Shown here piece by piece: positions 4,701-61,982 of a stretch of 64,000 nucleotides of DNA. The notes under the pieces were generated by a model. The model saw only the letters and a program-made list of their open reading frames with translations. It had not been told where the DNA came from and did not search any database. Made by a program: the position numbers and the translations under genes. The stretch spans positions 192,302 to 256,301 of the forward strand of contig LCLX01000001.1 in assembly GCA_001002285.1 (NCBI GenBank). The letters are read 5' to 3'. Source of the DNA: Microgenomates group bacterium GW2011_GWC1_46_15. Lineage in GTDB: Bacteria; Patescibacteriota; Microgenomatia; UBA1400; UBA12028. Position 1 is the first letter of the stretch, and every line of letters begins with the position of its first letter.

Positions 4701-4847
4701 AAAGATGTTATGGGGGAAGTCCGCGCGCTCTATTTCCCGCGGACAACACACTACAGCGTATGTAAAGAGTGTGAGTTTGCCCAGCACTGCTGGCCCGATG
4801 GCATTCCAGAGCAAAAAGCGGAACAAATGAAACTTATCTCTTCTTAA
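1713..4847 (+). CDS. UvrD/PcrA-family SF1 helicase fused to a C-terminal RecB/Cas4-like PD-(D/E)xK nuclease with Cys cluster (AddA-like helicase-nuclease)
   Basis: Walker A AGPGTGKT, VDEYQDTN, TKNYRST, VALTRAK helicase motifs. C-terminal GGRIDKIE...VVDYKTGQ (RecB nuclease motif III-like) and the cysteines of CKECEFAQHCW. Confidence 0.85.
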   Translation: MPSQSPLKKPQEKSNAVFSSLYSKLNPEQKKAVDAVEGPVMVFAGPGTGKTQVLAMRAANILRKTDVGPHNILALTFTESAAKAMRDRLISIIGEDAYYVNIATFHSFCSDVIQSNPEFFPFSRDAEPLTDLERFTIVENIIREQAFEAIKPINSPIFYVRDCIKAMQDLKRENVEPDDFRKLIEYDVLQLKKAESLPKTEQKQREKNIAKQRELLQVYVLYQQKLREMGRYDYEDMISFAVHAFEQDEILLRSYQERLQYILVDEYQDTNAAQNKVLELLASYWGKQANVFVVGDSDQSLYRFQGASLENSVAFVKKYPTALFITLTKNYRSTQTILDAATELIAKNNFTHATLLEKFQKISAKKSTRTSVPLSATVSYPAQPVYVAAFSSDLAETAYIAEEISTLIKKGTNPSEIAVLYRTNNDSAAIEDALVKWEIPYEIDSGVDILDSPVVMQLLTLFRVIYDLRTTREAIDLFTVLNYEWVGLDALDLLKLSRHAAEKKQSLFDIVQGNEIKALQLKKAKETIAFVQKLIQWSKDDAQKTFPLWFETVLNDSGFLSWVLKRNDAAEAINKIQSLFREVKIQTSVDKSTKLETFLRTIERMREHRIAVNEEVLQLQRKAVKLATAHSAKGREWEYVFIIRAIDGKWGNTRSKDLIPLPEGVLRYTNIEEKEKNEDDRRVFYVALTRAKKRVTVTYAKTSVSGNRTKENTQTLFIEEIPEKLKKEVDTTSFEQSANAVLAKLLHAPVNQTQTIEENEWLSGLLENFVLTPTTLNTYLECAYKFKLNTLVKVPRAKEDYLAFGTAIHKALEMLFRSFIEKNKIPSKEFVIGEFEKSLHREIMTQDEEKARLNQGRKVLSAYYDEYTSQFAKPVFLEKFLGYGWPRIYLDDIRIGGRIDKIEWADDAHKTVTVVDYKTGQPKTRGEIEGKTKTSNGDYKRQLLFYKLLTDLDRSFGHKVEKGMFDFIEKDKQTGKFRREEFFLPKEEVDGLRKIIKDVMGEVRALYFPRTTHYSVCKECEFAQHCWPDGIPEQKAEQMKLISS

Positions 4848-6149
4848 TTATTTCCAACTTGGCAATGCAAAATAGACCCGATTAACAATCTTTTGTGGTA
4901 TAGGTATGCCCGTAAGGTGGGGATAAAACACAATAAACCACGCAAGCGCAAGCAAAGGAACAGTCACGACAAGAAACCGCAATCTTTTTTTCCGTGAAAT
5001 ATCGGCAAGAAACAGTGCAAGCATAATGCAAAGTAGTGGAATTGCGGGGGCATAGTGGTACGAGAACATAATCCTCGGAGAAAAAAGCCACGGTGTCCAC
5101 ACACTAAGATACGTAAGCAATAGAAATCCCCTTTTCCAGTCGCGGTTTTTGAGCCACAGTACCGCGAACCACACCGCGGTAATAAGTCCGCCCCAGAACA
5201 CAATGGGATTTCCCAGGTTATAAATATTGCCGACTTTTCCTGGTGTGTTGTAATCCACATACATCCAGACTGGTTTGAGATCAAACATCCATTGCAAGGG
5301 CGTTGATTGAGACGCGTGTGTCGCGTTCAAGTGCGTTTGGTAATACCAAATCTGGTTGTGGAGTTCTTTAAATTGGCTCCACGCATGGCCCTGCAGCCAA
5401 AACTGTGAGTAGGACAAAAGGTAAATCAGGATAGGAAGAATAATCCACGATAAAACTCCTTTCAGTAAAAGGATAAACTTTTTTTCTTTTAACACAACTA
5501 CAAAAGTATCAATGAAAAAGATTGGGAGAAGAAAGGCCCCACTCCATTTTGTTGCAACAGCAAGACCGGTAAGAATTCCCGATACAACAATCTGATATGG
5601 CTTTCGGTATTTCCGCCAGCGTGTGTAAAATACCAACGCACAGAGCATAAAGAAAACAAGAAAAATGTCATTCATCGCAATGCGGGATTGGGCAAGCAGT
5701 AAACCATCAACCGCGGAAAAAAAACTTGCAAGCAACGCAACACCTCGCACTTTTGTCAATTGAAGTGCCAATACATACGTCATCCACACCACACCAACGC
5801 CAAATATAACGGAAGGAAAACGCCATCCAAAACTATTTTCTCCAAAAATATACATGCTTCCAGCCTGGAAAAGTTTTGCTACCGGTGGATGGAGCCATTC
5901 AATTGCGGTATTTGGCTCAGGAGCGTCGTGCCACCATTCATATCCGGCGGGGTTGTTGTGCGCGTAGAGCTTGGCGGTAACTGCGTGATACACTTCATCA
6001 AAGTAGTACGTTTTTGGTAAAGTAACTCGGTACATTCGGGTTGCGAACGCGAAAAGCAAAATGAGTGGAAGAAGATAAAACGCTAGTCGGTCAAATGATA
6101 TATGTTTCATAAAACTGTATACAGTATAAAACATTGGAAGAGAAAACAT
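4848..6149 (-). CDS. integral membrane glycosyltransferase, GT39/PMT-ArnT-like (GT-C fold)
   Basis: Multi-pass hydrophobic protein with an N-terminal YYFDEVYHAVTA motif (DE motif of lipid-phosphate-sugar-dependent GT-C enzymes). The annotated start overlaps the divergent neighbour by 48 nt; the true start may be an internal Met (MFYTV or MKHIS). Confidence 0.55.
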   Translation of the reverse strand: MFSLPMFYTVYSFMKHISFDRLAFYLLPLILLFAFATRMYRVTLPKTYYFDEVYHAVTAKLYAHNNPAGYEWWHDAPEPNTAIEWLHPPVAKLFQAGSMYIFGENSFGWRFPSVIFGVGVVWMTYVLALQLTKVRGVALLASFFSAVDGLLLAQSRIAMNDIFLVFFMLCALVFYTRWRKYRKPYQIVVSGILTGLAVATKWSGAFLLPIFFIDTFVVVLKEKKFILLLKGVLSWIILPILIYLLSYSQFWLQGHAWSQFKELHNQIWYYQTHLNATHASQSTPLQWMFDLKPVWMYVDYNTPGKVGNIYNLGNPIVFWGGLITAVWFAVLWLKNRDWKRGFLLLTYLSVWTPWLFSPRIMFSYHYAPAIPLLCIMLALFLADISRKKRLRFLVVTVPLLALAWFIVFYPHLTGIPIPQKIVNRVYFALPSWK

Positions 6150-7772
6150 GAGGGAGCGTTTTGGTTTTTTACACTTTTCTCAACGTGGGGCGCATATTTT
6201 TTGTATCTTTGGCCACATATTCTGTATAAAACTGGGGAGGGAATTGTTGCTGGATGGATTGGTGTTTGGGCTGATTGGGCGGCACATTTTTCATACGCAA
6301 GTGTATTCGCGTATCGCCCACCAAGCGCATGGTTTTTGTGGCACCCATTATTTTTAGGAAAGAAATTCACATATCCGTTTTTGGCCGACGCAATCTCGGG
6401 AATGCTCATGCGGCTGGGTATAGATCGTGTTCCCGCATTTATTGGCCCATCCATCATTTTTACCGCGCTTTTTCTTGCGACACTATTTTTATTTTACCGG
6501 GAAATCTTAAAAAGTTGGAAGCAAGCATATCTTGCGGTTTCATTGTTTTTATTGAGTGGCGGGCTGGGATTCTTGTGGTTTTTACGCGATCTTTTTCAGA
6601 CACAGTCGTTACGTGTTGTACAATTTCCTCCACTTGAGTACACACACATCGGCGATTCGTACATCGAGTGGATCAACGTCGTCACGGGCCAGCTTTTGCC
6701 GCAGCGCGCGTTTTTACTTGGCTTGCCGGTTGCGCTCATGTTATTAATTATTCTTCACAGGTGGACACAAAAAGGATTTTCAAAAGTTTCTCTAGCCCGC
6801 CTTATCTTTTTTGGTTTGTGCTCCAGTCTTTTGCTGATTATTCACGTTCATACATTCATTATGTTTGTCATGGTGTGTGCGGTGAGCTGTATATTTGCGC
6901 TCTACAAGAAAAAACAGGATTGGAAGCATTGGGTGATGTTTGCCATTGCGGCGGGAATTCCTTCGATGATCATTTTTTCATGGCTGTATGGCGGAGAAAT
7001 TACACAGGGATTTTTCCGGTGGTATCCGGGGTGGCTCGCAAACCCACAAGCAAAGAACATCAACTTTTTCTATTTTTGGTGGATCAATTGGGGTGTATTT
7101 CTTCCATTTTCATTGTTTGCGATCATCAAAACAAAGTTATATAAACAACAATTTGTGTTGAGTGGTCTATTGTTATTTATTGCATCCAATCTCATTCTTT
7201 TTCAACCGTACGATTGGGATAACTCAAAGATTCTTACATGGAGTTATCTATTTTTCTGTATCCCATCAGCACAATTACTAGCGATGATGTGGAGAAGACG
7301 AATAATTTTTGCAAAAGTATCAGCTATTGTTTTAGTAATGGTGATGACCGCTTCCGGCGGCCTCGATCTTTGGCGGCTTCTTCACACGGATAAGCTTTCA
7401 TATCTTATGCTGAGCAGTGACGATCTCTCCATTGCCGAACAGTTCCGCCGCATCTCCACGCCCACCGATGTTGTATTGACCGCGGATAAGCACAATCACT
7501 GGGTTACAACGCTGACCGGGCGCCCCATTCTCTTGGGGTATAAGGGGTGGATGTGGACGTACGGCATTCACTACGAACAACGTGATGCCGACATGGTTGA
7601 GATGTTCCGCGGCGGTCCTCTCGCGCAAGAGTTATTAAAAACGTACGCTATCAAATGGGTGGTGATCGGCCCCGCTGAACTCTATGATTACCATGCGAAC
7701 GAGGCGTATTTTGCGAAAAAATATCCGATGGTCCTCAAAAACAGTGAGTACAGGGTGTATAAAATTCAATAG
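6102..7772 (+). CDS. integral membrane protein, probable GT-C-fold glycosyltransferase with a C-terminal soluble domain
   Basis: About 12 predicted hydrophobic helices followed by a ~150-aa hydrophilic C-terminal domain. No diagnostic motif recognised. The start is uncertain because of overlap with 4848..6149. Confidence 0.45.
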   Translation: MFHKTVYSIKHWKRKHEGAFWFFTLFSTWGAYFLYLWPHILYKTGEGIVAGWIGVWADWAAHFSYASVFAYRPPSAWFLWHPLFLGKKFTYPFLADAISGMLMRLGIDRVPAFIGPSIIFTALFLATLFLFYREILKSWKQAYLAVSLFLLSGGLGFLWFLRDLFQTQSLRVVQFPPLEYTHIGDSYIEWINVVTGQLLPQRAFLLGLPVALMLLIILHRWTQKGFSKVSLARLIFFGLCSSLLLIIHVHTFIMFVMVCAVSCIFALYKKKQDWKHWVMFAIAAGIPSMIIFSWLYGGEITQGFFRWYPGWLANPQAKNINFFYFWWINWGVFLPFSLFAIIKTKLYKQQFVLSGLLLFIASNLILFQPYDWDNSKILTWSYLFFCIPSAQLLAMMWRRRIIFAKVSAIVLVMVMTASGGLDLWRLLHTDKLSYLMLSSDDLSIAEQFRRISTPTDVVLTADKHNHWVTTLTGRPILLGYKGWMWTYGIHYEQRDADMVEMFRGGPLAQELLKTYAIKWVVIGPAELYDYHANEAYFAKKYPMVLKNSEYRVYKIQ

Positions 7773-14440: not shown

Positions 14441-14764
14441 GTGACAAAAACAATTTTAATTGATAAACGAGCGGAGAAAGAGCTTAAACAATTTCCCCGC
14501 TCAGTTCAATTAAAATTTCAGGCATTTTTTGAGATTCTTGAAAAAGAAGGGAGGTTGGAAGAGCCATTTGGTAAAAAACTTTCCGGAATGGCTCGTATAT
14601 TTGAAATACGGGTAAAACATGAAGGGCAATGGCGGGTACTCTATGCGTATCTATATAAAGATTCAATCGTAGTGTTATCCGCTTTTGCAAAGAAAACTCA
14701 AAAAACACCAAGAATAGAACTTGAAAAGGCAAAGAACAGATTACTTGGGTATAGGGAGGAATAA
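14441..14764 (+). CDS. HigB/RelE-superfamily (Gp49-like) toxin
   Basis: About 107 aa. FEIRVKHEGQWRVLYAYLYKDSIVVLSAFAKKTQKTP resembles phage Gp49/HigB-like toxins. Stop overlaps the start of the next gene (TAATG). Confidence 0.55.
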   Translation: MTKTILIDKRAEKELKQFPRSVQLKFQAFFEILEKEGRLEEPFGKKLSGMARIFEIRVKHEGQWRVLYAYLYKDSIVVLSAFAKKTQKTPRIELEKAKNRLLGYREE

Positions 14765-15054
14765 TGAAAACACTTCGAAAACAACAAACCATTACTTTGA
14801 GTGATTTTGGGAAAAATATAACAAAAGAAGAGCGGAAATTTATTGATGCCGAAAAAAGGTATTACCAAGTTGTCGTTGCTTTGCGGAAAAAGAGAGAAGG
14901 TCTTGGGCTCACACAAGAAAAATTGGCGCATCTTTCGAAATTACCAAGAACAACAATTACAAAAGTTGAGTCGGGATCAAGAAACGCAACACTCCAAACA
15001 CTCATGGTCATTGCTCAGGCAATGGGAAAAAGTATTGAGCTAAGACTTTTGTAG
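14764..15054 (+). CDS. XRE-family HTH antitoxin (HigA-like)
   Basis: GLTQEKLAHLSKLPRTTITKVESG helix-turn-helix; 96 aa; translationally coupled to the upstream toxin gene. Confidence 0.6.
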   Translation: MKTLRKQQTITLSDFGKNITKEERKFIDAEKRYYQVVVALRKKREGLGLTQEKLAHLSKLPRTTITKVESGSRNATLQTLMVIAQAMGKSIELRLL

Positions 15055-15990: not shown

Positions 15991-16893
15991 ATGAGGAAAA
16001 TCTTTCTTCTCGTTTGTACAGCAGTTCTTTTGTCGGCGTGTTCGGCACCGTCATTTTTTCAGAAAAAAGCAGGATTGCAGATTAAGCTAACGGGTGAAGA
16101 TAAAGCCGAAGTATTTTTAAACGGATCAACCGTAGGAACAACGCCGTACGAAGCAGATAATCTTAAAGCGGGAACATACACAGTCAAACTTGTTCCACAA
16201 GACGCGACAAAACAGCCATACGAAACACACGTTGTCCTATCCCCGAGTCTCATCACGGGGATAACGTGGAGTTTTGGCGCAACGCCGGATGAAAGTGGCG
16301 GCGATGTGTTTGAGCTTTCAAAAGTTTCTGGAAAGAAAGCAGAATTATCGATTATTACCACGCCAGACAACATTGTGGTGCGATTGGATGGGCAGTCTAA
16401 AGGATTCAGTCCGCTGATTTTGCAGGAGCTTTCCGAAGGCGAACACTCGCTAACGTTGAGTGCGCCGGGATATGTTGAGCGCACAAGTGCTCCAAAAATT
16501 ATGAAGGGGTATCGCGTAACTGTAACCACAAAACTCGCGCGGGACTCACAAAGTTTGATCACAACTCCAGTGTCAACGCTATCTGCTCTGCCAACACCAA
16601 CTCCGAAGGCAACTCCGAAAGCGACACCGAAAACAACAACAGCAACGGGTTCGGCAACGATCAAAACACAGGTGACTCCGCCTTTACCCTACGTTGAAGT
16701 AACACAGACACCGACTGGGTGGTTACGCGTACGCACTGAGGCAAGCGGAGCTTCTGATGAAGTTGCAAAGTTAGACGTGGGTGCAAAGGTCCCGTATCTC
16801 AATGAAACAACAGATGGGTGGCACAAGGTTGAGTACACAACGGGGAAAACAGGATGGGTTTCCGGTCAATATGCGATTGTACATTCGCAGTAA
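15991..16893 (+). CDS. lipoprotein with PEGA domain, Thr/Pro-rich linker and C-terminal SH3b domain
   Basis: Signal peptide with lipobox LLSAC. PEGA-like KAEVFLNGSTVGTTPYEADNLKAGTYTVKLV. PTPTPKATPKATPKTTT low-complexity linker. C-terminal GWLRVRTEASG...GWVSGQYAIV is SH3_3-like. Confidence 0.6.
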   Translation: MRKIFLLVCTAVLLSACSAPSFFQKKAGLQIKLTGEDKAEVFLNGSTVGTTPYEADNLKAGTYTVKLVPQDATKQPYETHVVLSPSLITGITWSFGATPDESGGDVFELSKVSGKKAELSIITTPDNIVVRLDGQSKGFSPLILQELSEGEHSLTLSAPGYVERTSAPKIMKGYRVTVTTKLARDSQSLITTPVSTLSALPTPTPKATPKATPKTTTATGSATIKTQVTPPLPYVEVTQTPTGWLRVRTEASGASDEVAKLDVGAKVPYLNETTDGWHKVEYTTGKTGWVSGQYAIVHSQ

Positions 16894-16896
16894 AAA

Positions 16897-17826
16897 TCAG
16901 AACACATACAGCACGGTCATCACAGAAAGTCCCCACAGCACGACGGCAATCAATAGCGGTTTATCTTCCAGCAATACTTTATCCGGCGACTCTCCACGGT
17001 TTTTTTCGTATACGAGCTGCAAGTACCGCATCACGCCATAAATCACCAAGGGCACGGTAACCATCAGCCATTTTTGCGTGATAAATGTACGGGGCAGAAC
17101 GGTGTACACTTGTAACAATTTTCCCGCGGGAACGTACGCGTCGCTTTGGAATGCATAGAGCGCGTAGGTCAACCAAGTGGTGTTCGCGAACATGCCGGTA
17201 TAGATATCTAGCAAACGCTGTGAGTAATGTTCCAATGCTTTGCGCGTGTTTCCACTACCTTCCATGAGTGTCCGCTCGCTTTGCCGTTTGCCAACCGCGA
17301 GGAATAAAGCTGCGGAAATGACGGTGAGCAGGAACCACACGCTCATGTGCAGGTTCACTACTACGGCACCAGCGTATACACGGAGAATAAAGCCGGTTGC
17401 GATCGCCATGACGTCAAGAATGGGGATGTGTTTCAACGAGAATGAATAGAATATATGAAGTGCAGCATACGCAATCGTAAGCAGTAAAAAGTATGAGGAA
17501 AACGTGAGTGAGAAAAAGAATACGGAAACCAAGCCAACGATAGCAAAAAAGAGGGCGATTGGAACGGGCAACTTTCCGGACGCAATCGGCCGGTTTTTCT
17601 TAAATGGATGTTGGCGGTCCGATTTTAAATCAATAATATCGTTGATGATGTAAATCGAAGAAGACAATACGGAGAACAACACAAACGCCTTTGTGACGGT
17701 GAAAAAATACCGCGGAAAATCATAGAAAAAGAATCCTGAAAACACCAGCGCCGCATACAACGCAAGATTTTTTATCCACTGTCTTGGACGAGCCGCTTTG
17801 ATGATGAGAAAAAAAGTGTGATCCAC
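16897..17826 (-). CDS. UbiA-family prenyl-phosphate phosphoribosyltransferase (decaprenyl-phosphate 5-phosphoribosyltransferase, DPPR-synthase-like)
   Basis: ARPRQWIKNLALYAAL and NDIIDLKSDRQHPFKKNRPIASGKL (NDxxDxxxD) match the Rv3806c-type UbiA signature; about 8 TM helices; ends in TGA. Confidence 0.7.
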   Translation of the reverse strand: MDHTFFLIIKAARPRQWIKNLALYAALVFSGFFFYDFPRYFFTVTKAFVLFSVLSSSIYIINDIIDLKSDRQHPFKKNRPIASGKLPVPIALFFAIVGLVSVFFFSLTFSSYFLLLTIAYAALHIFYSFSLKHIPILDVMAIATGFILRVYAGAVVVNLHMSVWFLLTVISAALFLAVGKRQSERTLMEGSGNTRKALEHYSQRLLDIYTGMFANTTWLTYALYAFQSDAYVPAGKLLQVYTVLPRTFITQKWLMVTVPLVIYGVMRYLQLVYEKNRGESPDKVLLEDKPLLIAVVLWGLSVMTVLYVF

Positions 17827-18854
17827 GCGAGGAATCCTCCAAAGAGTAACACTGCTGCGATGATTGTATAGAATTTTTGCTCGCTATTCAATTGAAGCGC
17901 TAACATTCCAAGAAATGCAGTGGTGATCCAGTAGAATCCTGCGATTCTCCGTTTGCCCCATCCCATGTCAAGAAGACGGTGGTGGAGATGCCCGCGGTCG
18001 CCCCACACCGGCGAGTGGCCTTTCATGATGCGGCGCAGAATGACAAACACCGCGTCAATCGTTGGAATGGCTAAAACTAACAATGCAGTTGCAACTTTTG
18101 CACCGGATAAAATGGATAAGACGGCGAGGAAGTAGCCGGCTAGTGAGCCTGCCCCGTACCCAGCCATAATTTTTTGCGGATACATGTTCCATACTAAGAA
18201 TCCCAAGAACGCGCCGGATACAATAAGTGCCAGTGTGGTAACACTCGTTTGTGCGGGATCGGTAGAGAAGCGGAGCGATAGTACACCGATCACAAACGCG
18301 GCAATACCAACAAATCCAGGCATCTGCCCATCAATACCCTTCGACCAGTTCACGATGTTCATGTTCCACACAATCCAAAGAACAGCAAAAAAATCAGCAA
18401 GCAGCCAAATGGCGTGGGAAGATCCGAATGCTTGAAATATAAGCCGCGGTTGGTCCAACGCAATAACACCAGGGCCAAGCGGATTACTGACGTATGCGAT
18501 ACCAATACCGGAACCCACAACGGCAAGTGCGGCGCAAATGGTAAGTATAAGCCGCAAGTATGGATTGAGATCAAAAAGATCGTCAAAAAAACCAACAAGC
18601 GCAAGAATGATAGCACCAATAAAAATACCAATGAAATGTTTATCAATCGGCATAAACATCAAACTCGCCACCAACGTTGCCAAGAAAATAATAATACCGC
18701 CGCCACGCGGGACAGGTTTTGTGTGAACTACTTTTGGATGCGAACTTTTTTTAGGATCGTCAATCCACCGGAACTTTTTATAGAGCGCGATAACAATTGG
18801 GGTCACGCAGAGCGCGGTTATAAAACTGACAAGTAACGCGGAAATATTGAGCAT
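17772..18854 (-). CDS. glycosyltransferase family 4 polyprenyl-phosphate sugar-1-phosphate transferase (MraY/WecA family)
   Basis: Multi-TM; NMNIVNWSKGIDGQ (MraY/WecA NxxNxxDGxDG-like); HLHHRLLDMGW. Confidence 0.7.
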   Translation of the reverse strand: MLNISALLVSFITALCVTPIVIALYKKFRWIDDPKKSSHPKVVHTKPVPRGGGIIIFLATLVASLMFMPIDKHFIGIFIGAIILALVGFFDDLFDLNPYLRLILTICAALAVVGSGIGIAYVSNPLGPGVIALDQPRLIFQAFGSSHAIWLLADFFAVLWIVWNMNIVNWSKGIDGQMPGFVGIAAFVIGVLSLRFSTDPAQTSVTTLALIVSGAFLGFLVWNMYPQKIMAGYGAGSLAGYFLAVLSILSGAKVATALLVLAIPTIDAVFVILRRIMKGHSPVWGDRGHLHHRLLDMGWGKRRIAGFYWITTAFLGMLALQLNSEQKFYTIIAAVLLFGGFLAWITLFFSSSKRLVQDSG

Positions 18855-18875
18855 ACGTTTATTTTTTAACCTTTT

Positions 18876-19202
18876 CTATCCTACGACGACTACAATGCGG
18901 ATGCACGCAATGTACACCAATACAATGGTAAGAAGTGTTGCAATGTTAAGAATCGAGAGAAGGAACTCTTGCCCGCGGATTCTTCGCGCAATCTGTGATT
19001 GAAAAAACGCGACTCCACCAGCAAATAATGGAAAGATAAAAATATATTGACTTTTTACAATGAAGTCTTGTGTCCGCGCGAGTGTGTAAAACAACGGAAT
19101 CTCCGGCGGAAGAAAAAAGAAGTACGCGATTGTTACGATGAAAAACAACATGCCCACCAATAGAAAGGAGGCAGTTGGAGTAAAAAGAGCACGTTGCGGC
19201 AT
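18876..19202 (-). CDS. small integral membrane protein
   Basis: 108 aa with three hydrophobic helices; no recognised motif. Confidence 0.35.
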   Translation of the reverse strand: MPQRALFTPTASFLLVGMLFFIVTIAYFFFLPPEIPLFYTLARTQDFIVKSQYIFIFPLFAGGVAFFQSQIARRIRGQEFLLSILNIATLLTIVLVYIACIRIVVVVG

Positions 19203-19220
19203 ATATATTTCTAAGTCCGA

Positions 19221-20744
19221 TTATTTTGATCCGACTCTACGATACAGATTCATTGTGGGCAGTTGTTTCACAAGCACATATTGGCCATTCAGGTATGTAT
19301 AAAAATCAGGAAACTTTCCATCTTCATTGCGCATCACAACAATCACTTGTGGCGGATGCGCAACTAAACTATCCATCGTTTCTTGGTACGCGTTGAAGTC
19401 TTTAATGTGGAAAGACACAGTAAATCTTCCGGAGGGAACTCTGCGGGCAAGTGCGTACAGCATGGGATCGGTGCCCCATATAAAAAGTCTACTGTTAGAA
19501 GGGGTTGTTTGTTGGATGTACGACGCGGCGGCATATGTATCGGCCATGAGCGGGTTGAACTGTTCGCGGTACTGTTCGATCGAGATATCGTGGCGGATAA
19601 ACTGGAGGAATGTGGTGTAGTAGGAAAGCATAGGGTACTGTCCTGACTGGAAACCAACGAGAATGAGCACGAGTGGAAGAACACATAGCACAGGAACAAG
19701 TGATGATTCAATCGTAGATTTTACTTTTCCAAACCAAAACGCGAGCGCAAGCGCGAGTGGAGGAAATGTTTGAAGGAAGTAGTGCGGATACGGGCGTGAA
19801 GAAAGCAATGCGGAAAAGAGTGTTAATGCCATCCACGCGTACACAAACACTGCCTGCGGAGAAAGCTTTTTCCTTGCGAAAATTAAGAGTGCGATGATGG
19901 CAGCAAACGCAGACAATTTTCCCGGCATACTGAAAAGAAAAAGGAGAAAGGGATGAGAAAAGGGTGGAGAAAACTCAAAACTATACCGGAAGTTGTATAA
20001 CAAACCAAACGCGAGATAATCTCCCAACGCGTGTTTTGCGACGAAGTACGCAATACTGAGAAGAATCGGGATGGCAAAACCCATGGCAAGAATAATGGTT
20101 GCCTTTAAGAGCGCAGAAAGGACTTCCCACGATGGTTTGCGGAGATATAAAAAGAAAAAGAGAACTCCAACCGCCGCGGCATCAAATATCGCCGGGACTT
20201 TTGTAAGCGCGCCCAATGAAAAGAGGACTCCAACGCCAAAGAGCGGAACAACATCAAGAATACGTTTCTCTTTGTGGTGAAAAAAAGAGTGCCATAGTGA
20301 TGTTTGAGTAAGTAACGCAAGTCCGCCGAGCATAAATCCCATGACGAACAACTCTCCGTTCGCGATGTTGCCTTCAAAAAATGGTAATGCTGTGAGGAGT
20401 AGTAAGAAAAATGTTGCAAGATATGCCTGTTTTTTTGTCGTAAAAAAGCGTTCGGCAACGCGGTAAAAAAGCGCGAGCATGCAGGTTGTCCAGGTCATCA
20501 GCAAAAGCTTGAACCAAAACTGTGACGGCACCATTGCAAGAAGATAAATGATCGGTGTTTTATGATCAATAATGTCTTTGTACAGCGTAAGCCCATTGCG
20601 CAGTGCCAAACCAACCGTTAAATAAATGCCCTCGTCACCGTACCAATACGGTTCAAACAAATTTGGGATGCGGAGTAAAATATTGGCAACGAGAATGAAG
20701 AAAAGTGGTTCAATGCGGACAAGAAAATGAAATAATCGTTTCAC
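19221..20744 (-). CDS. GT-C-fold membrane glycosyltransferase (ArnT/PMT-like)
   Basis: N-terminal YGDEGIYLTVGLALRNGLTLYKDIIDHKTP (DE motif of GT-C lipid-linked-sugar transferases), >10 TM helices, C-terminal soluble domain. Confidence 0.55.
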   Translation of the reverse strand: MKRLFHFLVRIEPLFFILVANILLRIPNLFEPYWYGDEGIYLTVGLALRNGLTLYKDIIDHKTPIIYLLAMVPSQFWFKLLLMTWTTCMLALFYRVAERFFTTKKQAYLATFFLLLLTALPFFEGNIANGELFVMGFMLGGLALLTQTSLWHSFFHHKEKRILDVVPLFGVGVLFSLGALTKVPAIFDAAAVGVLFFFLYLRKPSWEVLSALLKATIILAMGFAIPILLSIAYFVAKHALGDYLAFGLLYNFRYSFEFSPPFSHPFLLFLFSMPGKLSAFAAIIALLIFARKKLSPQAVFVYAWMALTLFSALLSSRPYPHYFLQTFPPLALALAFWFGKVKSTIESSLVPVLCVLPLVLILVGFQSGQYPMLSYYTTFLQFIRHDISIEQYREQFNPLMADTYAAASYIQQTTPSNSRLFIWGTDPMLYALARRVPSGRFTVSFHIKDFNAYQETMDSLVAHPPQVIVVMRNEDGKFPDFYTYLNGQYVLVKQLPTMNLYRRVGSK

Positions 20745-20767
20745 CGAGTCATTGTACTATAGAACTT

Positions 20768-22285
20768 CTATACTTTCTCAGTGACGCGGTACTCGATGTA
20801 TTTACCGAGCATCAAGCGGGTATGTGAATCAATACCTGGGAGTGCTGAGAAGAAAAATCCAATGATGGGAAGCAAAATATACTCAAATGGTTGAATAAGT
20901 ACTTTAAGAAAAGAAACTTCTTTTGGCCGCGGTGGACGAGAACGTGCATCAATAACAAAAATAGTGAGGAGTGAAACAAGGCTCAGGGTTAAAATTGCGG
21001 AAGTAACTTGCGGGAGTGTTTTTCCAAGAATGGTTCGGCTGAACTGTTCATTGAGAAGCGTTGGAAATAGTGCGCCAAGCGTGATCGCAAACCAGTTCAC
21101 GGGCCAAAGGAAGTGATCTTCTACGGTCTTAAACACGCGGATTGTTTTATCCCAGAACGGAATGTTTTCAGCAAGAATCCATTGTTTGAGAATGTACGCA
21201 TCGTCACTCACACCCCAAGACCATCGTTTGATTTGCTCATACTGATTTTTCATTGTTGGCCAAAACCCATGTGATTCTGGGGCGTCTGCGTATACGGGAA
21301 TAAACATAGGAACAACCTCCAAATCGCCTTTTTTCGCAAAGTACGCTTTAAAGAACAGACGGTAGTCTTCCGGAATAACATCGGTATCCCAATACCCGAT
21401 CTCATCAATAAGTTTTAGTGATACTGAGTATGTGGAAAAATTAATAAGCCGGTCCTGCCGCATCAAAATAAACATTTGCATAACTGAGAACATTGAGGCG
21501 AGCACGCGCACAGGAGCAGGAACTTTCCAAATATTGTTGTAAAACATGATGGATGGTTGCCAAATACGGTTATATCGTTTGGGATCGTCAAGGAACTTAA
21601 ACGTGAGCGCGCTAAAATAATTCGGATGGAACTGCGCATCGGCGTCTTGGCTGGAAATGGTCACGTAGTTGATATCAATTTTTTGCTGGTCCACGAGCTT
21701 ATGTTTTGCCTCTTTTGCTCCCCAGCACATGTTTGATGATTTCCCTTTGACTTCACCCGCAATGTCGGGATGAAACGTACACCACAAATGACCAAACGTT
21801 TTTGCATAAAGTTTTTGAAGTGTTTTTGCTTTTTCTTTCCCCCCCTCTCCCTCGCGTTCTTCAAATGAAAGCATAATAGACATGTTTTCTAATGGAAACG
21901 TTTGTTTTTTGAGGCTTTCGATGGTGCGCTGGAGTGTGGAAAGCGGTTCTTTATATGTTGGAATCACGACAATGTGGTGAATGCGTTTCCAGTCTGGGAA
22001 TTGTTGAAGATCTCCGAGCCAGTCAAAGTTCTGAGAGGCGCGGATGCGGAAGTGCGCAACGGTCGCGAGTACAGCCATACTGAGTGAGCGGTAAAGCCAA
22101 TACATATCGAAAAAAATGATGTAGTACGCGACAACTTCTGGCACAACAAGCGCGCCCCATACGGGAAAAAGAATGAGCCACCACGACGTGAACCCGGGAA
22201 GGATTTCCAGGAAGCGCTGTGTTTTGACGGGATAGCGGCGGACGATTCTGCGCAGGAACGGAAACATATCGGGGTATTGTACCAT
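20768..22285 (-). CDS. glycosyltransferase family 2, processive (cellulose-synthase-like) membrane GT
   Basis: HIVVIPTYKEP, SQDADAQ (DxD) and QIKRW (QxxRW) motifs; TM segments at both ends. Confidence 0.7.
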   Translation of the reverse strand: MVQYPDMFPFLRRIVRRYPVKTQRFLEILPGFTSWWLILFPVWGALVVPEVVAYYIIFFDMYWLYRSLSMAVLATVAHFRIRASQNFDWLGDLQQFPDWKRIHHIVVIPTYKEPLSTLQRTIESLKKQTFPLENMSIMLSFEEREGEGGKEKAKTLQKLYAKTFGHLWCTFHPDIAGEVKGKSSNMCWGAKEAKHKLVDQQKIDINYVTISSQDADAQFHPNYFSALTFKFLDDPKRYNRIWQPSIMFYNNIWKVPAPVRVLASMFSVMQMFILMRQDRLINFSTYSVSLKLIDEIGYWDTDVIPEDYRLFFKAYFAKKGDLEVVPMFIPVYADAPESHGFWPTMKNQYEQIKRWSWGVSDDAYILKQWILAENIPFWDKTIRVFKTVEDHFLWPVNWFAITLGALFPTLLNEQFSRTILGKTLPQVTSAILTLSLVSLLTIFVIDARSRPPRPKEVSFLKVLIQPFEYILLPIIGFFFSALPGIDSHTRLMLGKYIEYRVTEKV

Positions 22286-22313
22286 GAAAAAGGAGGTATT
22301 ACTTGAGGAAAAG

Positions 22314-23123
22314 TTACGTCGTTTGTAGATTAAAAAACCGCATACTATTTTCGCTTATCATTTTTTCAAATATATCTTTCTCCATCGAAAGAAAATCTGC
22401 AAGAAATGCCGATGTTTCTGCGATATACGCAGGTTCATTGATATTTCCTCGCTTAGATTGTGGAGCGAGAAAAGGCGCGTCGGTTTCGATAAGGAGACGG
22501 TCATGCGGGGTATGGCGTGCCAACTCGCGGATACCATCTGCGTTTTTATATGTCACATTTCCAGCAAAACTGATAGAGAACCCAAGTTCTAATGCTTTGT
22601 TGAGATATTCTATTGAGCCGGACATGCAGTGCAGAACAGCGCGGGGTGTTTTTCCATCGCTTTTTGAAAAATGATTGAGAACATCAAGGACATCATCGTA
22701 TGCATCTCTGCAGTGAATAATCAGCGGTAAATCGTATGTTTTTGCTAATGTAATATGCTCACCAAACAATAGTTTTTGTCTATGCTTTTCCTGTTCGGCG
22801 TTTTGGTCTTTTGGAACATGAAAATAATCGAGTCCACATTCACCAATTGCCACAAGCGAATCTTTATGGTGTTCAATGAGCGCGCGGAGCTGTTGGATTT
22901 CAGTGTGTGTAGACGAAGCCGGGGTGTCGGTTGGATGGTAGCCAACCGCGCAAAACAAATTTGGATCCTGGTGCGCAACTTCAATCGCGCGCGCGTTACT
23001 TTGCGCATCTGTTCCAATCACAATGCTTTTGGAAACGCCGGCAGCCTGTGCCTCTTTCCAATATCTCTTCCAATCTGCATACAATGGGTCAAGATTGTAA
23101 TGGATGTGCGTATCAATAATCAT
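22314..23123 (-). CDS. tatD: TatD-family metal-dependent hydrolase/DNase
   Basis: IIDTHIHYNLDP, GECGLDY, LLIETDAPFL TatD motifs. The track start at 23297 gives a ~58-aa non-homologous N-extension overlapping metG; the likely start is ~23123 (MIIDTHIH). Confidence 0.75.
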   Translation of the reverse strand: MIIDTHIHYNLDPLYADWKRYWKEAQAAGVSKSIVIGTDAQSNARAIEVAHQDPNLFCAVGYHPTDTPASSTHTEIQQLRALIEHHKDSLVAIGECGLDYFHVPKDQNAEQEKHRQKLLFGEHITLAKTYDLPLIIHCRDAYDDVLDVLNHFSKSDGKTPRAVLHCMSGSIEYLNKALELGFSISFAGNVTYKNADGIRELARHTPHDRLLIETDAPFLAPQSKRGNINEPAYIAETSAFLADFLSMEKDIFEKMISENSMRFFNLQTT

Positions 23124-24541
23124 GCCGAAAGCCTTGGAAAAAGCGGCGCGGGTTGTGTGATGGTTTTTTCCGTAAAGATACTCAACATGCGTTTGGCAGT
23201 TTCTGGCAAAAATGGTTGGAGGTCGTATCCTACCGCAATTACTCCAGCGACAAGCTCGTTGAGTGTCTTGAGACGATCGTCGCCTTTTTTCTCCCAAACT
23301 TTTTCATCGCTGATGCGTTTGTTAAGCGCAGAAATACGGTTCCATATATCGTCAAGCGCCCCTCTCAGCGCAAATCGGTTGATAGCCTGAGATACCGCGG
23401 GGGAGAATGTTTTTACGTTTGTCGCAGCAATACTGGAGCCTTCGCACAACTTTGCCAACCGCGATACTAAGTTTCCTAGTTCATTTGCCAGCGCGGAACT
23501 ATACATCTCGCCAACGCGGTCAATGCTAATATCGCCGTCCTCGGTTGTTGGAATCTCGCGGAGCACATAGTAACGAACGGGTTCAACGCCGTATTTTTCA
23601 ATGATTTCGATGGGGTCAATCACGTTCCCGAGTGTTTTACTCATCTTTTGACCGTTCACCGTAATATAGCCGTGCGAGTAAATGCGTTTTGGAAGTGGTA
23701 GTTTTGCAGACAAGAGCATAGCCGGCCAGTACACCGCGTGAAAACGGATAATGCCTTTGCCGATCAAATGGACATCGGCTGGCCACCATTTTTTATATTT
23801 CTGCTCATCAATACCGAAACCAACACCGCTTTGATAGACGTTGAGCGCGTCAAACCACACATACATCATTTGTGTCGAATCACCCGGAACTTCAACACCC
23901 CAATTATGCGCACGCTCTTTAGAACGCGAAATACTAATGTCCCGCACATCACCCTGTAAAAAGCGGACTACCTCGTTTTTTTGTTTTTCCGGAATGATTT
24001 CAAGCTCACCCGATTCAATCAGCTGTAAAATCTTTTCTTTATACGATGATAACTTGAAAAAATAATTTTCCTCGCCAACCTTTTCCAATTTTTTTCCTGG
24101 ATGTTCAAAACACTCACCATTTTTATTGAGTTCATCTGGTGTATAGAACGCCTCGCATCCCACACAGTACAGCCCTTCGTACGTTTTTTTGTAGATATCA
24201 CCGTTTTTTGCGCACAGTTTCCACAATTCTTGGCTGGAAACGTGGTGTTTTTCACTACTCGACCGCTGAAATACATCGAACTGTACAGAGAGTTTTTCAG
24301 CAAGCTCAACAAACTCATCGGCATGCAATGTGCAAAATGCCCGCACTTCCTGCCCTGCTTTTTCCGCGGCCTGTACGTTTTTTAGTGCGTTTTCATCAGA
24401 GCCAGTGAGATACATCGTTTCATCGCCAGCCAAACGGTGGTACCGCGCGATCACGTCACCCTGCACAAACTCAAGCGCGTGCCCAATATGCGGCTTCGCG
24501 TTTACGTACGGAATGGCGGCGGTAATATAAAACTTCGTCAT
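23120..24541 (-). CDS. metG: methionine--tRNA ligase (short form)
   Basis: AAIPYVNAKPHIGHALE (HIGH motif); QKMSKTLGN (KMSKS); 473 aa, lacking the C-terminal tRNA-binding extension. Confidence 0.9.
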   Translation of the reverse strand: MTKFYITAAIPYVNAKPHIGHALEFVQGDVIARYHRLAGDETMYLTGSDENALKNVQAAEKAGQEVRAFCTLHADEFVELAEKLSVQFDVFQRSSSEKHHVSSQELWKLCAKNGDIYKKTYEGLYCVGCEAFYTPDELNKNGECFEHPGKKLEKVGEENYFFKLSSYKEKILQLIESGELEIIPEKQKNEVVRFLQGDVRDISISRSKERAHNWGVEVPGDSTQMMYVWFDALNVYQSGVGFGIDEQKYKKWWPADVHLIGKGIIRFHAVYWPAMLLSAKLPLPKRIYSHGYITVNGQKMSKTLGNVIDPIEIIEKYGVEPVRYYVLREIPTTEDGDISIDRVGEMYSSALANELGNLVSRLAKLCEGSSIAATNVKTFSPAVSQAINRFALRGALDDIWNRISALNKRISDEKVWEKKGDDRLKTLNELVAGVIAVGYDLQPFLPETAKRMLSIFTEKTITQPAPLFPRLSA

Positions 24542-24559
24542 AACAGGTATTGTACCGCA

Positions 24560-24937
24560 TTATTTTTTAGATTTTGGTGAGGGTTTTGCAAACATGCGTA
24601 AAAATTTCTTACTCATTGAACTTGCCCACTTATCCACTTTCATCTTTTGAAGTGCAAGTTTCATTCCTTTTGCATTTGTTTTTTCTGCAACAGTAGCAAT
24701 GGTGGCGCTGGAAACGTGAAGAATTTTCCCAATCTCTGTGTAGTTTTTTCCATCATTTAAAAACGCTGCTATAGCAAGTCTTTTTGTAAGCATATCCATT
24801 TCTCCGCGGCCCAAAAAATCCTCAAGAAAAACGCGCGACTCTTTCACTGTAGAAAGATCGGCGATCACTTGAAAAAAAGAGCGGTGAAGCTCCTCTTCAA
24901 ACACACTCTGCAGTTTTTGCGAAGACATTTTTGGCAT
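24560..24937 (-). CDS. TrpR-like YerC/YecD-family DNA-binding protein
   Basis: About 125 aa with HTH YTEIGKILHVSSATIATV, characteristic of the Trp-repressor-like YerC family; sits directly upstream of metG. Confidence 0.55.
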   Translation of the reverse strand: MPKMSSQKLQSVFEEELHRSFFQVIADLSTVKESRVFLEDFLGRGEMDMLTKRLAIAAFLNDGKNYTEIGKILHVSSATIATVAEKTNAKGMKLALQKMKVDKWASSMSKKFLRMFAKPSPKSKK

Positions 24938-24978
24938 ATATATTCCAGGGCAAACGGGATGTTCAGTACAATAGCAAG

Positions 24979-25323
24979 CTATTGTTTAGCAGTCAAGAGC
25001 AATTCAAATGATAAAAGTGTTAAAAGCAGAATAACGATGTTTAATGCGCTGATCATATGCAGAAAAGAGAACAAAATCAGGATGGTAAGACCAATGGCGA
25101 GCAACAATCCTCTTCTCATATTTAAGAAGAGGTAACTCAGTAAAAAACACGCGGAAAGAAAAATAAGGAGAAATATAATGGCATATGAGTTTTCCGGTGG
25201 AATGGTGCGAATAATGGATGGATCAACAAAAAAGAAAATTTCGAGAAGGATGAAGAGGAAGAAAACTCCGATGCCAAGAGTGGGAATGGTGTTGAGATAT
25301 GTTTTTTTTGTCACTCTGGTCAT
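24979..25323 (-). CDS. small integral membrane protein
   Basis: 114 aa with three hydrophobic helices. Confidence 0.35.
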   Translation of the reverse strand: MTRVTKKTYLNTIPTLGIGVFFLFILLEIFFFVDPSIIRTIPPENSYAIIFLLIFLSACFLLSYLFLNMRRGLLLAIGLTILILFSFLHMISALNIVILLLTLLSFELLLTAKQ

Positions 25324-25357
25324 TCTATCCTACTCCGCGCTTTGATAGAATAACCAC

Positions 25358-26410
25358 ATGACAGATTTACTCGTCATTCTTCTTTCGCTCGCCGCGCTTG
25401 TGGCTTTTTTTGCGTGGTACCTCAACAAGAAATTTTCCGAAATGACTGTAAAAAAGGAAGACACCACATTGGTTGAGTGGATCAAGGCAACGCAGGAAGA
25501 TATTAAAAATCTTCAGCAAACGCTGCACGACTCGATGCAAAAATCCAATCAGAACATGACCGTAACGCTTCAGCAGAACACAAAGGACATTCATGACCGT
25601 TTGACGCGGGCGGCGGAAGTCATCGGCGAACTTAAAAGAGAGGCAGGAGCGTTCAGTGAAGTCGGCCGTTCTATGAAAGAACTGCAGGAGTTTTTGAAGT
25701 CCCCTAAACTGCGTGGAAACATTGGTGAGCGTGTACTCAATGATCTCATTGGGCAGATGTTTCCAAAACAGAGCTTTTTTATTCAGTATAAGTTTCGGTC
25801 AGGAAATACGGTTGATGCGGCAATCAAAACAGATGCCGGGATTCTTCCGATTGATTCGAAGTTTCCCATGGAGAACTTCCAAAAAATGGCAAAAGAAGAA
25901 ACGGAGAAGGGTCGCGATCTTGCTCGTAAGGAATTTATTCGTAATGTACGGAGTCATATTGACGCAATCTCTTCAAAATACATTTTGCCGGAAGAAGGAA
26001 CGATGGATTTTGCATTGATGTATGTGCCTTCCGAGTCGGTGTACTACGAAATCGTCAACATGAATGACGTGATGGAGTACGCCCGCATCCAACGGGTATA
26101 TATCGTTTCGCCATCAACGCTCTACGCGCATCTGCAAACAATTTTGCTCTCGTTTGAAGGAAAAAATCTTGAACAAAAAAGCCGTGAGGTGCTTCGGTTA
26201 TTGCACGCGGTGAAAAAAGACTATGGAAAAGCGCTCACGCAGTTTGCGGTTCTTGGGAAACACGTAACGAATGCATACAACAGTGTTTCAACGGTTTCCG
26301 GTGCGTTTTCCCAGCTTGGCCAAAAGCTAGAAAGTACGGATAGACTTGAAGATGGAAAAGAAAAATCCCGGACATTGCTACAAGCAAGCGAGAGTGTGGA
26401 AGAGGAATAA
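25358..26410 (+). CDS. rmuC: DNA recombination protein RmuC
   Basis: N-terminal TM, long coiled coil, C-terminal ILPIDSKFPMENF and FALMYVPSESVYYE, typical of the RmuC family. Confidence 0.7.
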   Translation: MTDLLVILLSLAALVAFFAWYLNKKFSEMTVKKEDTTLVEWIKATQEDIKNLQQTLHDSMQKSNQNMTVTLQQNTKDIHDRLTRAAEVIGELKREAGAFSEVGRSMKELQEFLKSPKLRGNIGERVLNDLIGQMFPKQSFFIQYKFRSGNTVDAAIKTDAGILPIDSKFPMENFQKMAKEETEKGRDLARKEFIRNVRSHIDAISSKYILPEEGTMDFALMYVPSESVYYEIVNMNDVMEYARIQRVYIVSPSTLYAHLQTILLSFEGKNLEQKSREVLRLLHAVKKDYGKALTQFAVLGKHVTNAYNSVSTVSGAFSQLGQKLESTDRLEDGKEKSRTLLQASESVEEE

Positions 26411-61652: not shown

Positions 61653-61982
61653 TCCCCGGTAGCTCAGCCTGGTAGAGCGGGAAGCTGTAGCGTACTGCAG
61701 CCCTTTTTAGCGATGAAAAGGGAAACACAGGGTGAATTCAGGGAAGCCTTCGCTAGTGGTGAAAATCAATAGCATGGTAATCCTGAGCCAACTCCGATGA
61801 ATGGAATAAACGTAGTCGGAAGGGTGCAGAGACTAGGAGTGAGGATCCAACCAATACTCTCCAGAAGCGCCCTGCTCCAACATTATTTCGGTAGCGTTGG
61901 ATGAAGAGATAGTCCACACTTTATGGAAACATAAAGAGCATGTGTAACTTCAAGGTCCAAGGTTCAAATCCTTGCCGGGGAG
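61653..61982 (+). tRNA. tRNA-Asn: tRNA-Asn (anticodon GUU) interrupted by a group I intron
   Basis: Exon 1 61653-61688 (TCCCCGG acceptor, GCTC-AGCCTGGTA-GAGC D-arm, GGAAG, CUGU). Exon 2 61945-61982 (UAA, CTTCA, T-arm CAAGG-TTCAAAT-CCTTG, CCGGGGA, discriminator G). The spliced anticodon loop CUGUUAA equals the canonical tRNA-Asn loop. Confidence 0.75.
61689..61944 (+). ncRNA. group I self-splicing intron (~256 nt) in the tRNA-Asn anticodon loop
   Basis: P1: exon GCUGU pairs with the internal guide GCAGC (61697-61701), with U.G at the splice site. AAAGGGAAAC (P4-like). GGGUGCAGAGACUAGGAG (R element, P7 5' strand). GAAGAGAUAGUCCACAC (S element, P7 3' strand). The intron ends with G before exon 2. 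Closely resembles cyanobacterial tRNA-Leu intron core sequences. Confidence 0.75.

Follow-up and report, generated by a model that had tools for sequence, protein, structure and literature searches.

A conserved gene cluster of Microgenomates-group bacteria with a possible role in lipid-linked pentofuranose surface glycosylation

Which kind of surface glycan, if any, is built by the enzymes encoded in a run of membrane-protein genes of an uncultivated bacterium of the Patescibacteria? The question is raised by a 64,000-nucleotide stretch of contig LCLX01000001.1 from Microgenomates group bacterium GW2011_GWC1_46_15 (the window; GC content about 45%), in which nucleotides 16897-22285 encode a UbiA-superfamily protein, a glycosyltransferase 4 (GT4) protein of the MraY/WecA family, also called PNPT, a GT-C-fold glycosyltransferase and a GT2 protein. 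The original prediction, made from the sequence, took this region for a glycosylation cluster that uses polyprenyl-phospho-sugar donors of the arabinose type. On balance, we favor the reading that the locus is a lineage-wide envelope-glycan operon of the Microgenomates group, the core of which is a variant of the three-component pentofuranose system that depends on phosphoribosyl pyrophosphate (PRPP).

The three-component system was established experimentally as the route by which ribofuranose is attached to O antigens outside the cytoplasm; it comprises a UbiA-type polyprenyl phosphoribose synthase (PPPRS), a flippase and a GT-C enzyme (Kelly et al., PNAS 2024, PMC11127046). The system was founded on ORF15-ORF14-ORF12 of Citrobacter youngae O1/O2, and the same authors list Pseudomonas pilin glycosylation, Gram-positive bacteria and a phage among the related cases (PMC11127046). 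Epimerases are optional, with DprE1/DprE2 leading to arabinofuranose and an ORF13-type enzyme leading to xylofuranose; when no epimerase is present the donor is polyprenyl-phosphate-ribofuranose (PMC11127046).

The UbiA protein and its active site

The UbiA protein of the window scored 224.9 bits on NCBIfam model NF008978 (decaprenyl-phosphate phosphoribosyltransferase), above the curated equivalog cut-off of 207. It fell below the cut-offs of two sibling models for decaprenylphosphoryl-5-phosphoribose (DPPR) synthase (218 vs 234 bits and 168 vs 474 bits). Comparison with the cryo-EM structure of Mycobacterium tuberculosis Rv3806c (PDB 8j8j) gave E=8e-43. The original prediction had recognized a DPPR-synthase signature (RPxQWxKN and NDxxDxxxD) in this protein; both motifs were located, as RPRQWIKN at residues 13-20 and NDIIDLKSD at residues 62-70, and the profile search with DPPR models bore out the assignment.

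The residues of Rv3806c that bind Mg-PRPP, the ribose, the 5-phosphate and the lipid phosphate have been mapped (Gao et al., PMC10994848). Residues R13, K19, Y59, N62, D66, K76, R79, Y127, K132 and K180 of the window protein were invariant among 83 orthologues, and these positions correspond in the same order to R22, K28, Y70, N73, D77, K87, R90, Y138, K143 and K191 of Rv3806c. The Mg-PRPP site (N73/D77) and the pyrophosphate-binding K/R cluster (R22, K87, R90 and K143) are therefore all kept. The equivalent of Q135 is His in the window protein (Q in 66, H in 15 and N in 2 of the 83 orthologues) and the equivalent of Y157 is Phe, a change that has been reported in some mycobacteria as well (Gao et al., PMC10994848). 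Both differences are conservative.

Membership of Pfam superfamily PF01040 would also fit an ordinary aromatic or lipid prenyltransferase, of the kind that acts in the formation of quinones, haem O or archaeal-type lipids, and in that case the cluster would be unrelated to lipid-linked pentoses. The best non-DPPR prenyltransferase model reached 43 bits, and no other UbiA family model exceeded this value. Moreover, neither the PRPP-specific K/R cluster of Rv3806c nor its ribose and 5-phosphate contacts vary among the orthologues. We consider a prenyltransferase very improbable. Because the protein scored 225 bits on the DPPR model and at most 43 bits elsewhere, we conclude that UbiA is, to judge from its sequence, a phosphoribosyltransferase of the DPPR-synthase type, as had been proposed, rather than a prenyltransferase of quinone or haem synthesis.

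A profile of the Patescibacteria UbiA proteins scored 180-197 bits on the stand-alone PPPRS proteins of Marivivens, Lactococcus and Tsukamurella (190 bits on that of Lactococcus) and 103 bits on the HAD-fused PPPRS of Rhizobium CCGE531. No HAD domain was found in the 309-aa window protein by Pfam and NCBIfam scans. Homologues with 30-38% identity are annotated on replicons of Lactococcus, Rhodococcus, Tsukamurella, Marivivens, Rhizobium, haloarchaea, cyanobacteria and Bacteroidota, and UbiA-type homologues have been characterized or annotated in Pseudomonas, Citrobacter, Rhizobium, Lactococcus, haloarchaea, cyanobacteria and Bacteroidota. Placement of the pathway outside Corynebacterineae, as originally stated, is thus not a novelty, since homologues are known or annotated widely elsewhere.

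Gene order and partner enzymes

Five open reading frames (ORFs), all transcribed in one direction from the minus strand, exactly fill nucleotides 16897-22285 (Table 1). The gaps between the operon genes are 18-23 nt, with 23 nt between the GT2 and GT-C genes, and the GT4 and UbiA genes overlap by 55 nt; the overlap and the very short gaps suggest that the five genes may be translationally coupled. A promoter and terminator scan of nucleotides 16500-25400 gave counts that were not above those of shuffled sequence, so that no operon boundaries could be derived. Upstream of the GT2 gene, the same strand carries genes for TatD, methionyl-tRNA synthetase (MetRS) and a Trp-repressor-like protein.

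Conservation of this arrangement was assessed by a scan with the UbiA alignment, using one genome per GTDB species and a narrow pattern. The scan identified at least 294 species, and 80 loci were fetched, one per species (L009-L088), all of them from Patescibacteria; the synteny counts given here were made over these loci, with the evaluable species as denominators. The GT4 gene was directly upstream of UbiA in 78 of 79 species, the GT-C gene was two genes upstream of UbiA in 68 of 72, and the GT2 gene was upstream of both UbiA and GT-C in 52 of 64. Between the GT-C and GT4 genes, 63 of 68 loci had a small ORF of 68-133 aa. The loci of five GT-C homologues (41-91% identity) all showed the order MetRS, TatD, GT2, GT-C, small ORF, GT4, UbiA. 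As the gene order recurs in 80 other species, chance juxtaposition of the cluster genes is excluded. The predicted cluster is therefore real, and its gene list was correct for UbiA, GT4, GT-C and GT2, but the 108-aa membrane ORF had been overlooked.

The close relatives of the window proteins were all from metagenome-assembled genomes of Patescibacteria (the candidate phyla radiation) belonging to the Microgenomates group and labeled Pacebacteria, Woesebacteria or Cerribacteria. An exact-sequence lookup of the window UbiA protein matched no record; the nearest relative was an ENA metagenome contig (L001) with proteins that were 91-98% identical. The operon is core to the Microgenomates-group lineage of Patescibacteria. 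Median identity to the window proteins was 67% for GT2, 63% for UbiA, 57% for GT4, 43% for the PMT-family protein described below, 42% for MetRS, 41% for GT-C and 40% for TatD. Because the values for GT2, UbiA and GT4 exceed that of MetRS in the same loci, the data indicate that these three proteins are under strong purifying selection, tighter than that on MetRS.

The GT-C protein had no match of its own in Pfam, NCBIfam or PDB sequence searches. Its homologues number hundreds in Patescibacteria, a few of which exceed the Pfam PMT threshold. An AlphaFold model built from a 47-sequence alignment (mean predicted local distance difference test (pLDDT) score of 92.3) matched STT3, ArnT, AglB, PglB and DPY19 in a Foldseek search of the PDB with a probability of 1.0, and the fold was closer to PMT/ArnT than to AftA, AftB, AftD or Emb. 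The protein combines a multi-pass membrane domain with an acidic motif in the first extracytoplasmic loop; the sequence EPYWYGDEGIY follows the first transmembrane (TM) helix, and D37-E38 within it is invariant among orthologues. The modeled fold together with this DE motif upholds the original GT-C call for this gene.

The GT2 protein probably starts at M7 (nucleotide 22267), which would give a length of 499 aa, since its orthologues are 496-499 aa long. Identity within the family is 63-78%. The match to PF13632 was weak but significant (33.4 bits), and D174, D214xD216, E306-D307 and Q351xxR354W355 were invariant among 55 orthologues. Foldseek searches with the predicted model (pLDDT 86) returned the Chlorella-virus and Xenopus hyaluronan synthases and BcsA as the best matches (probability 1.0, query-normalized TM-score 0.43-0.53). 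Like the processive GT2 synthases (hyaluronan synthase, BcsA and chitin synthase/NodC), the protein has a GT-A domain with the D, DxD, ED and QxxRW motifs, flanked by N- and C-terminal TM helices. It differs from them in that no PilZ domain and no sequence-level match to solved synthases were found; the PgaC model reached only 18 bits. Its profile also had no similarity to GlfT2. From these data we conclude that GT2 is, on its predicted structure, a membrane-integrated synthase of the processive type (hyaluronan/cellulose-synthase-like), in agreement with the cellulose-synthase-like assignment made originally. A fold match to PcManGT had raised the possibility of a GtrB/DPMS-type polyprenyl-phosphate glycosyltransferase, which was judged less likely in view of the invariant QxxRW motif and the top matches to hyaluronan synthases and BcsA.

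The GT4 protein matched PF00953 with 82.5 bits (gathering cut-off 27) and was far under the NCBIfam equivalog cut-offs of wecA (77.9 vs 326 bits) and mraY (53.8 vs 192 bits), the latter of which rules it out as the MraY of this organism. It retains the DDxxD, NxxNxxxGxDG and HLHH motifs. D91 and D92 were kept in 81 of 82 orthologues (the remaining one has a gap), G173 was invariant and N164 was present in 69. By these sequence features GT4 is a divergent member of the PNPT superfamily.

The small membrane protein carries the motif P[LIVM][FWY]Y in 51 of 63 orthologues, the fuller form being (Q/P)PxIPLFY(S/T)LA. Pfam searches at E<=10 gave noise only, including DUF1648 with E=0.023 for one orthologue. 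A profile of 64 sequences (the 63 orthologues and the window protein) found nothing among the GtrA, SMR, EamA, PAP2 and HAD proteins of the comparator loci, and a GtrA, SMR or PAP2 identity was dropped. By its position, this 3-TM protein is a candidate flippase or accessory subunit.

Other GT-C-type enzymes occur next to the same core. In 39 of 75 related species, the gene directly after UbiA encodes a PMT-family GT-C orthologue and the next one a UvrD/AddB-type helicase; in the window, the corresponding PMT gene and the same helicase are about 10 kb from UbiA, and this PMT gene is probably a displaced member of the UbiA module. An hhalign comparison of the GT-C profile with the window PMT protein gave a probability of only 5%; the two are not close paralogues. 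In one sibling locus without this GT-C family (L029:10935-13767), the genes after GT4 and UbiA encode a PTPS_related membrane protein and a weak, sub-threshold GT87 match. In a second sibling locus (L017:12170-14532), genes for a small GT2 and a PMT_2 protein lie close by on the other strand (Pfam). We take PTPS_related, GT87 and PMT_2 to be members of the GT-C clan. The GT-C-type partners of the UbiA-GT4 core thus seem to be exchanged from one lineage to another, as would be expected if UbiA feeds GT-C enzymes.

Proposed pathway and competing explanations

From the folds, motifs and gene linkage described above, we infer the chemistry, sugar and acceptor as follows. On the cytoplasmic face, UbiA would transfer 5-phosphoribose from PRPP to polyprenyl phosphate, as suggested by homology and the conserved active site. 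A phosphatase encoded outside the operon, which itself contains none, would then strip the 5-phosphate to yield polyprenyl-phosphate-ribofuranose. Ribofuranose would be the default sugar because no epimerase is linked to the operon. The donor would be flipped across the membrane, a step for which the conserved 3-TM protein is the positional candidate, and GT-C, with D37/E38 on the outer face, would transfer the pentofuranose to an acceptor; the PMT-family GT-C may do likewise. The acceptor would most likely be a polysaccharide that is polymerized and exported by GT2, or alternatively a PNPT-primed polyprenyl-pyrophosphate-sugar glycan. Surface glycosylation with a lipid-linked pentose appears to be the most economical reading of these sequences. 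To this extent the polyprenyl-phospho-sugar surface pathway of the original prediction is supported, but its arabinose type is not supported locally.

Comparison with the Citrobacter three-component system is consistent with this scheme in several respects. Both have a UbiA-type PPPRS gene linked to a GT-C gene and an NDxxDxxxD site, and in both the lack of a linked epimerase makes ribofuranose the default, with extracytoplasmic addition to a pre-made glycan expected. The window differs in having neither a fused HAD phosphoribose-phosphatase domain nor a separate phosphatase nearby, in the unclassified 3-TM protein that occupies the flippase slot, where the Pfam neighbor lists contain no MATE protein, and in the PNPT that is an invariant overlapping partner in Patescibacteria. 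Furthermore, the Citrobacter system is a serotype-variable accessory, whereas the Patescibacteria operon is core and lineage-wide. The profile of 71 GT-C orthologues scored -0.8 bits on the 658-aa protein, a putative GT-C, encoded beside the PPPRS gene of Rhizobium sp. CCGE531, one of the candidate systems in the supplement of PMC11127046; on comparison with this protein alone, the window GT-C was not assigned to CAZy family GT136.

Other PPPRS loci differ in composition. That of Lactococcus cremoris pF27D encodes a hypothetical 462-aa membrane protein, PPPRS, a HAD-IB phosphatase and GtrA. It resembles the window in having a stand-alone PPPRS of about 290-310 aa beside large and small membrane proteins in a monoderm, but the phosphatase and GtrA have no counterpart in the window, which adds a PNPT and a synthase-type GT2. 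The Marivivens locus encodes a 740-aa protein, an EamA transporter, a GT4-family (GT-B) enzyme, PPPRS and a divergent PAP2, and the Rhizobium CCGE531 locus encodes the HAD-fused PPPRS, an oxidoreductase, the 658-aa protein, an SMR transporter and an epimerase. In Tsukamurella, Rhodococcus, Lactococcus, Marivivens and Rhizobium alike, the PPPRS is accompanied by a large membrane protein, a phosphatase and a small transporter, which speaks for the proposed scheme; the large membrane protein is of the AftB type (annotated ZomB) in Mycobacteriales loci and an unannotated hypothetical protein elsewhere. Neither GlfT2 nor any of the large membrane proteins, flippases and phosphatases of these comparators resembled the profiles of the GT-C, small-ORF and GT2 families. 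By sequence, the window GT-C appears to belong to a family distinct from those of the comparator systems and apparently undescribed.

The PPPRS loci of Tsukamurella and Rhodococcus contain glf, glfT2, PAP2, ubiA and aftB, and the window gene set formally parallels them. Like the Mycobacteriales locus glf-glfT2-Rv3807c(PAP2)-ubiA(Rv3806c)-aftB, the window has a UbiA of the same subfamily flanked by genes for a GT2 polymerase and a GT-C. In mycobacteria the polymer is primed by the PNPT WecA. By analogy, distal DprE1/DprE2-like enzymes could produce polyprenyl-phosphate-arabinofuranose, with the GT-C enzymes decorating a PNPT-primed, GT2-extended glycan as in mycobacterial-type arabinan. Such epimerases might well be unlinked, as Nocardia DprE1/DprE2 are about 33 kb from ubiA. 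We searched for them by tblastn with Nocardia queries that had been validated on NCBIfam models (784.6 and 422.5 bits for DprE1 and DprE2, respectively); at E<=0.01 neither was found in the 64-kb window or the 88 related loci (1.56 Mb), the set used for all epimerase, phosphatase and flippase searches. The arabinose-type donor proposed originally is therefore not borne out in the window or these loci. Weak matches to NAD-dependent epimerases/dehydratases (22-29% identity) were present 5-6 kb from UbiA in a single sub-lineage (L022, L024, L025, L027, L042 and L051) and absent from the window; they were judged to be generic sugar-nucleotide enzymes. The locus also differs from that of Mycobacteriales in having no local PAP2, in its channel-forming type of GT2, which is unrelated to GlfT2, and in a PNPT gene that is adjacent here and unlinked in mycobacteria. 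The GT-C fold is PMT/ArnT-like rather than Aft/Emb-like, and neither profile comparison nor tblastn revealed sequence similarity between GT-C and AftB. We regard an arabinan of the mycobacterial type as unlikely.

Several results weigh against the ribofuranose pathway proposed above. PAP2, divergent-PAP2 and HAD-IB phosphatases were not found in the window or the 88 loci by tblastn with comparator queries or in Pfam neighbor lists, nor were GtrA, SMR or EamA flippase homologues by tblastn. The MATE family was absent from the Pfam neighbor lists of five relative loci, with no MATE-directed query made. Two of the three canonical auxiliary functions are thus unaccounted for near the operon. The GT-C profile had no similarity to the putative GT-C partners in the comparator loci. 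In GT4, the position of the Asp in the VFMGD(x)GS motif is occupied by Tyr233; of 82 orthologues, 75 have Tyr and 7 have Phe there and none has Asp or Glu, and this alignment was consistent against three MraY structures. We take this to be the position of the Mg-binding Asp (presumably D265 of MraY_AA); to our knowledge, this Asp is present in all characterized PNPT family members. Since it is replaced, a role of GT4 as an N-acetylhexosamine-1-phosphate transferase or in priming is less secure; the original assignment as a polyprenyl-phosphate sugar-1-phosphate transferase holds for the family (PF00953), but the activity is less certain. Ten species retain GT-C, the small ORF, GT4 and UbiA without GT2 nearby. 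The conserved gene order also takes in MetRS and TatD, which are unrelated, so that the adjacency of GT2 could reflect inherited gene order and not a functional coupling. The functional link of GT2 is weaker than that of the four-gene core. Finally, the literature that we searched contained nothing, biochemical or compositional, on envelope glycans of Patescibacteria.

The separability of GT2 from the four-gene module and the presence of MetRS and TatD in the same synteny would also fit a locus in which separate pathways lie side by side. UbiA and the GT-C enzymes would then O-glycosylate proteins such as pilins or surface lipoproteins with pentofuranose, while GT2 would make an exopolysaccharide and the PNPT would prime a wall polymer independently. 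This explanation draws on the PMT-family (protein O-mannosyltransferase-like) GT-C that is beside UbiA in about half of the species, on a Thr/Pro-rich PEGA/SH3 lipoprotein gene that ends 3 nt from the UbiA stop codon, and on the published precedent of Pseudomonas pilin arabinosylation by a PPPRS and GT-C pair. However, GT2 adjoins GT-C in most species and is separated from it by only 23 nt in the window, and no acceptor is identifiable from sequence. We view separate pathways as possible but rather unlikely, and retain the envelope-glycan operon with a PRPP-dependent pentofuranose core as the favored reading.

The pathway concept is already published, each of the genes can be annotated with standard models and UbiA enzymes of this type are widespread. 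What appears to be undescribed is the lineage-wide, highly constrained occurrence, the lack of phosphatases and flippases of the usual families, a GT-C of a distinct family, the overlapping PNPT with a substituted Asp and the association with a synthase-type GT2. We found no paper in the searched literature that ties a DPPR-synthase-type enzyme to Patescibacteria or describes this operon. A bolder possibility, which we consider quite doubtful, is that UbiA and the Asp-less GT4 constitute a new two-enzyme unit that feeds an essential, lineage-defining pentofuranose wall polymer built with GT2 and the GT-C enzymes. In such a unit GT4 could use the phosphoribosyl-lipid as a substrate or pass it on, or could substitute for the phosphatase or flippase. 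If true, ultrasmall bacteria would have in this polymer a functional counterpart of arabinogalactan.

Neighboring features and biological meaning

The coordinates of the operon genes and of other features of the window are compiled in Table 1. The original prediction had placed two more GT-C proteins at 4848-7772. The first is a clear member of the PMT family; the second, a 556-aa protein, was not confirmed, as it had no Pfam or NCBIfam family and an hhalign probability of 0.2% against the GT-C profile. A single homologue of the 556-aa protein (L011, 37% identity) was found among the 88 related loci.

Table 1. Positions of the operon genes and of other features in the window
Feature	Coordinates	Strand	Length	Remarks
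GT2, synthase type	20768-22285	-	505 aa	Probably 499 aa, starting at 22267
GT-C-fold glycosyltransferase	19221-20744	-	507 aa	C-terminal extracytoplasmic alpha/beta domain
Small membrane protein	18876-19202	-	108 aa	About 3 TM helices
GT4/PNPT membrane protein	17772-18854	-	360 aa	MraY/WecA family, Pfam Glycos_transf_4
UbiA-superfamily protein	16897-17826	-	309 aa	Predicted polyprenyl-phosphate 5-phosphoribosyltransferase (PPPRS/DPPR-synthase type)
PEGA + SH3 protein	15991-16893	+		Lipoprotein-like
Gp49-like/HTH_3 pair	14441-15054	+		Toxin-antitoxin-like
Polytopic membrane protein	6102-7772	+	556 aa	C-terminal soluble part; divergent, 48-nt overlap with PMT gene
PMT-family GT-C	4848-6149	-	433 aa	Pfam PMT 78, PMT_4TMC 56, PMT_2 52 bits
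UvrD/AddB-type helicase	1713-4847			Abuts PMT gene
Zinc-ribbon-rich ORF	535-1362	+		Homing endonuclease associated repeat (PF18780)
tRNA-Pro	397-468	+
Split tRNA gene	61653-61976	+		Contains the group I intron
Group I intron	61677-61936			Rfam, 89.7 bits

The PEGA/SH3 protein has a Thr/Pro-rich linker (PTPTPKATPKATPKTTTATGS) and its gene is convergent with UbiA. Homologues were present in 15 of the 88 related loci, mostly immediately adjoining UbiA; we speculate that the protein is a possible target of O-glycosylation. The Gp49-like/HTH_3 pair is situated between GAPDH and a hydrolase/tRNA-Cys region. It is probably a recent insertion, because contig L001, which is 91% identical, contains it and it is not listed in a Pacebacteria relative (L002).

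The group I intron resides within a split tRNA gene, with a 5' half TCCCCGGTAGCTCAGCCTGGTAGAGCGGGAAGCTGT... and a 3' half ...AACTTCAAGGTCCAAGGTTCAAATCCTTGCCGGGGA, at which ARAGORN reported no tRNA. The anticodon varies with the splice site; ARAGORN assigned trial joins to His, Tyr, Thr and Leu, while by manual reading Asn (GUU) could also apply. The 60-64 kb region around the intron has a low GC content of 0.35-0.40. At the other end of the window, the zinc-ribbon-rich ORF lies just after the tRNA-Pro gene.

The surfaces of Patescibacteria mediate attachment to host bacteria. The operon predicts testable chemistry, namely ribofuranose or another pentofuranose derived from a polyprenyl-phosphate donor, and clues to the missing steps may come from the atypical PNPT and from the small membrane protein of no known family. 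Should the pentofuranose pathway not be confirmed, the locus could still be annotated routinely gene by gene and would be ordinary in that sense. If the pathway is confirmed, it would provide chemical handles for labeling or inhibiting Patescibacteria, and PRPP-dependent pentofuranose transfer, defined recently as a serotype-variable accessory of pathogens, would be extended to a major uncultivated phylum, where it seems to be a core and strongly conserved function of the envelope.

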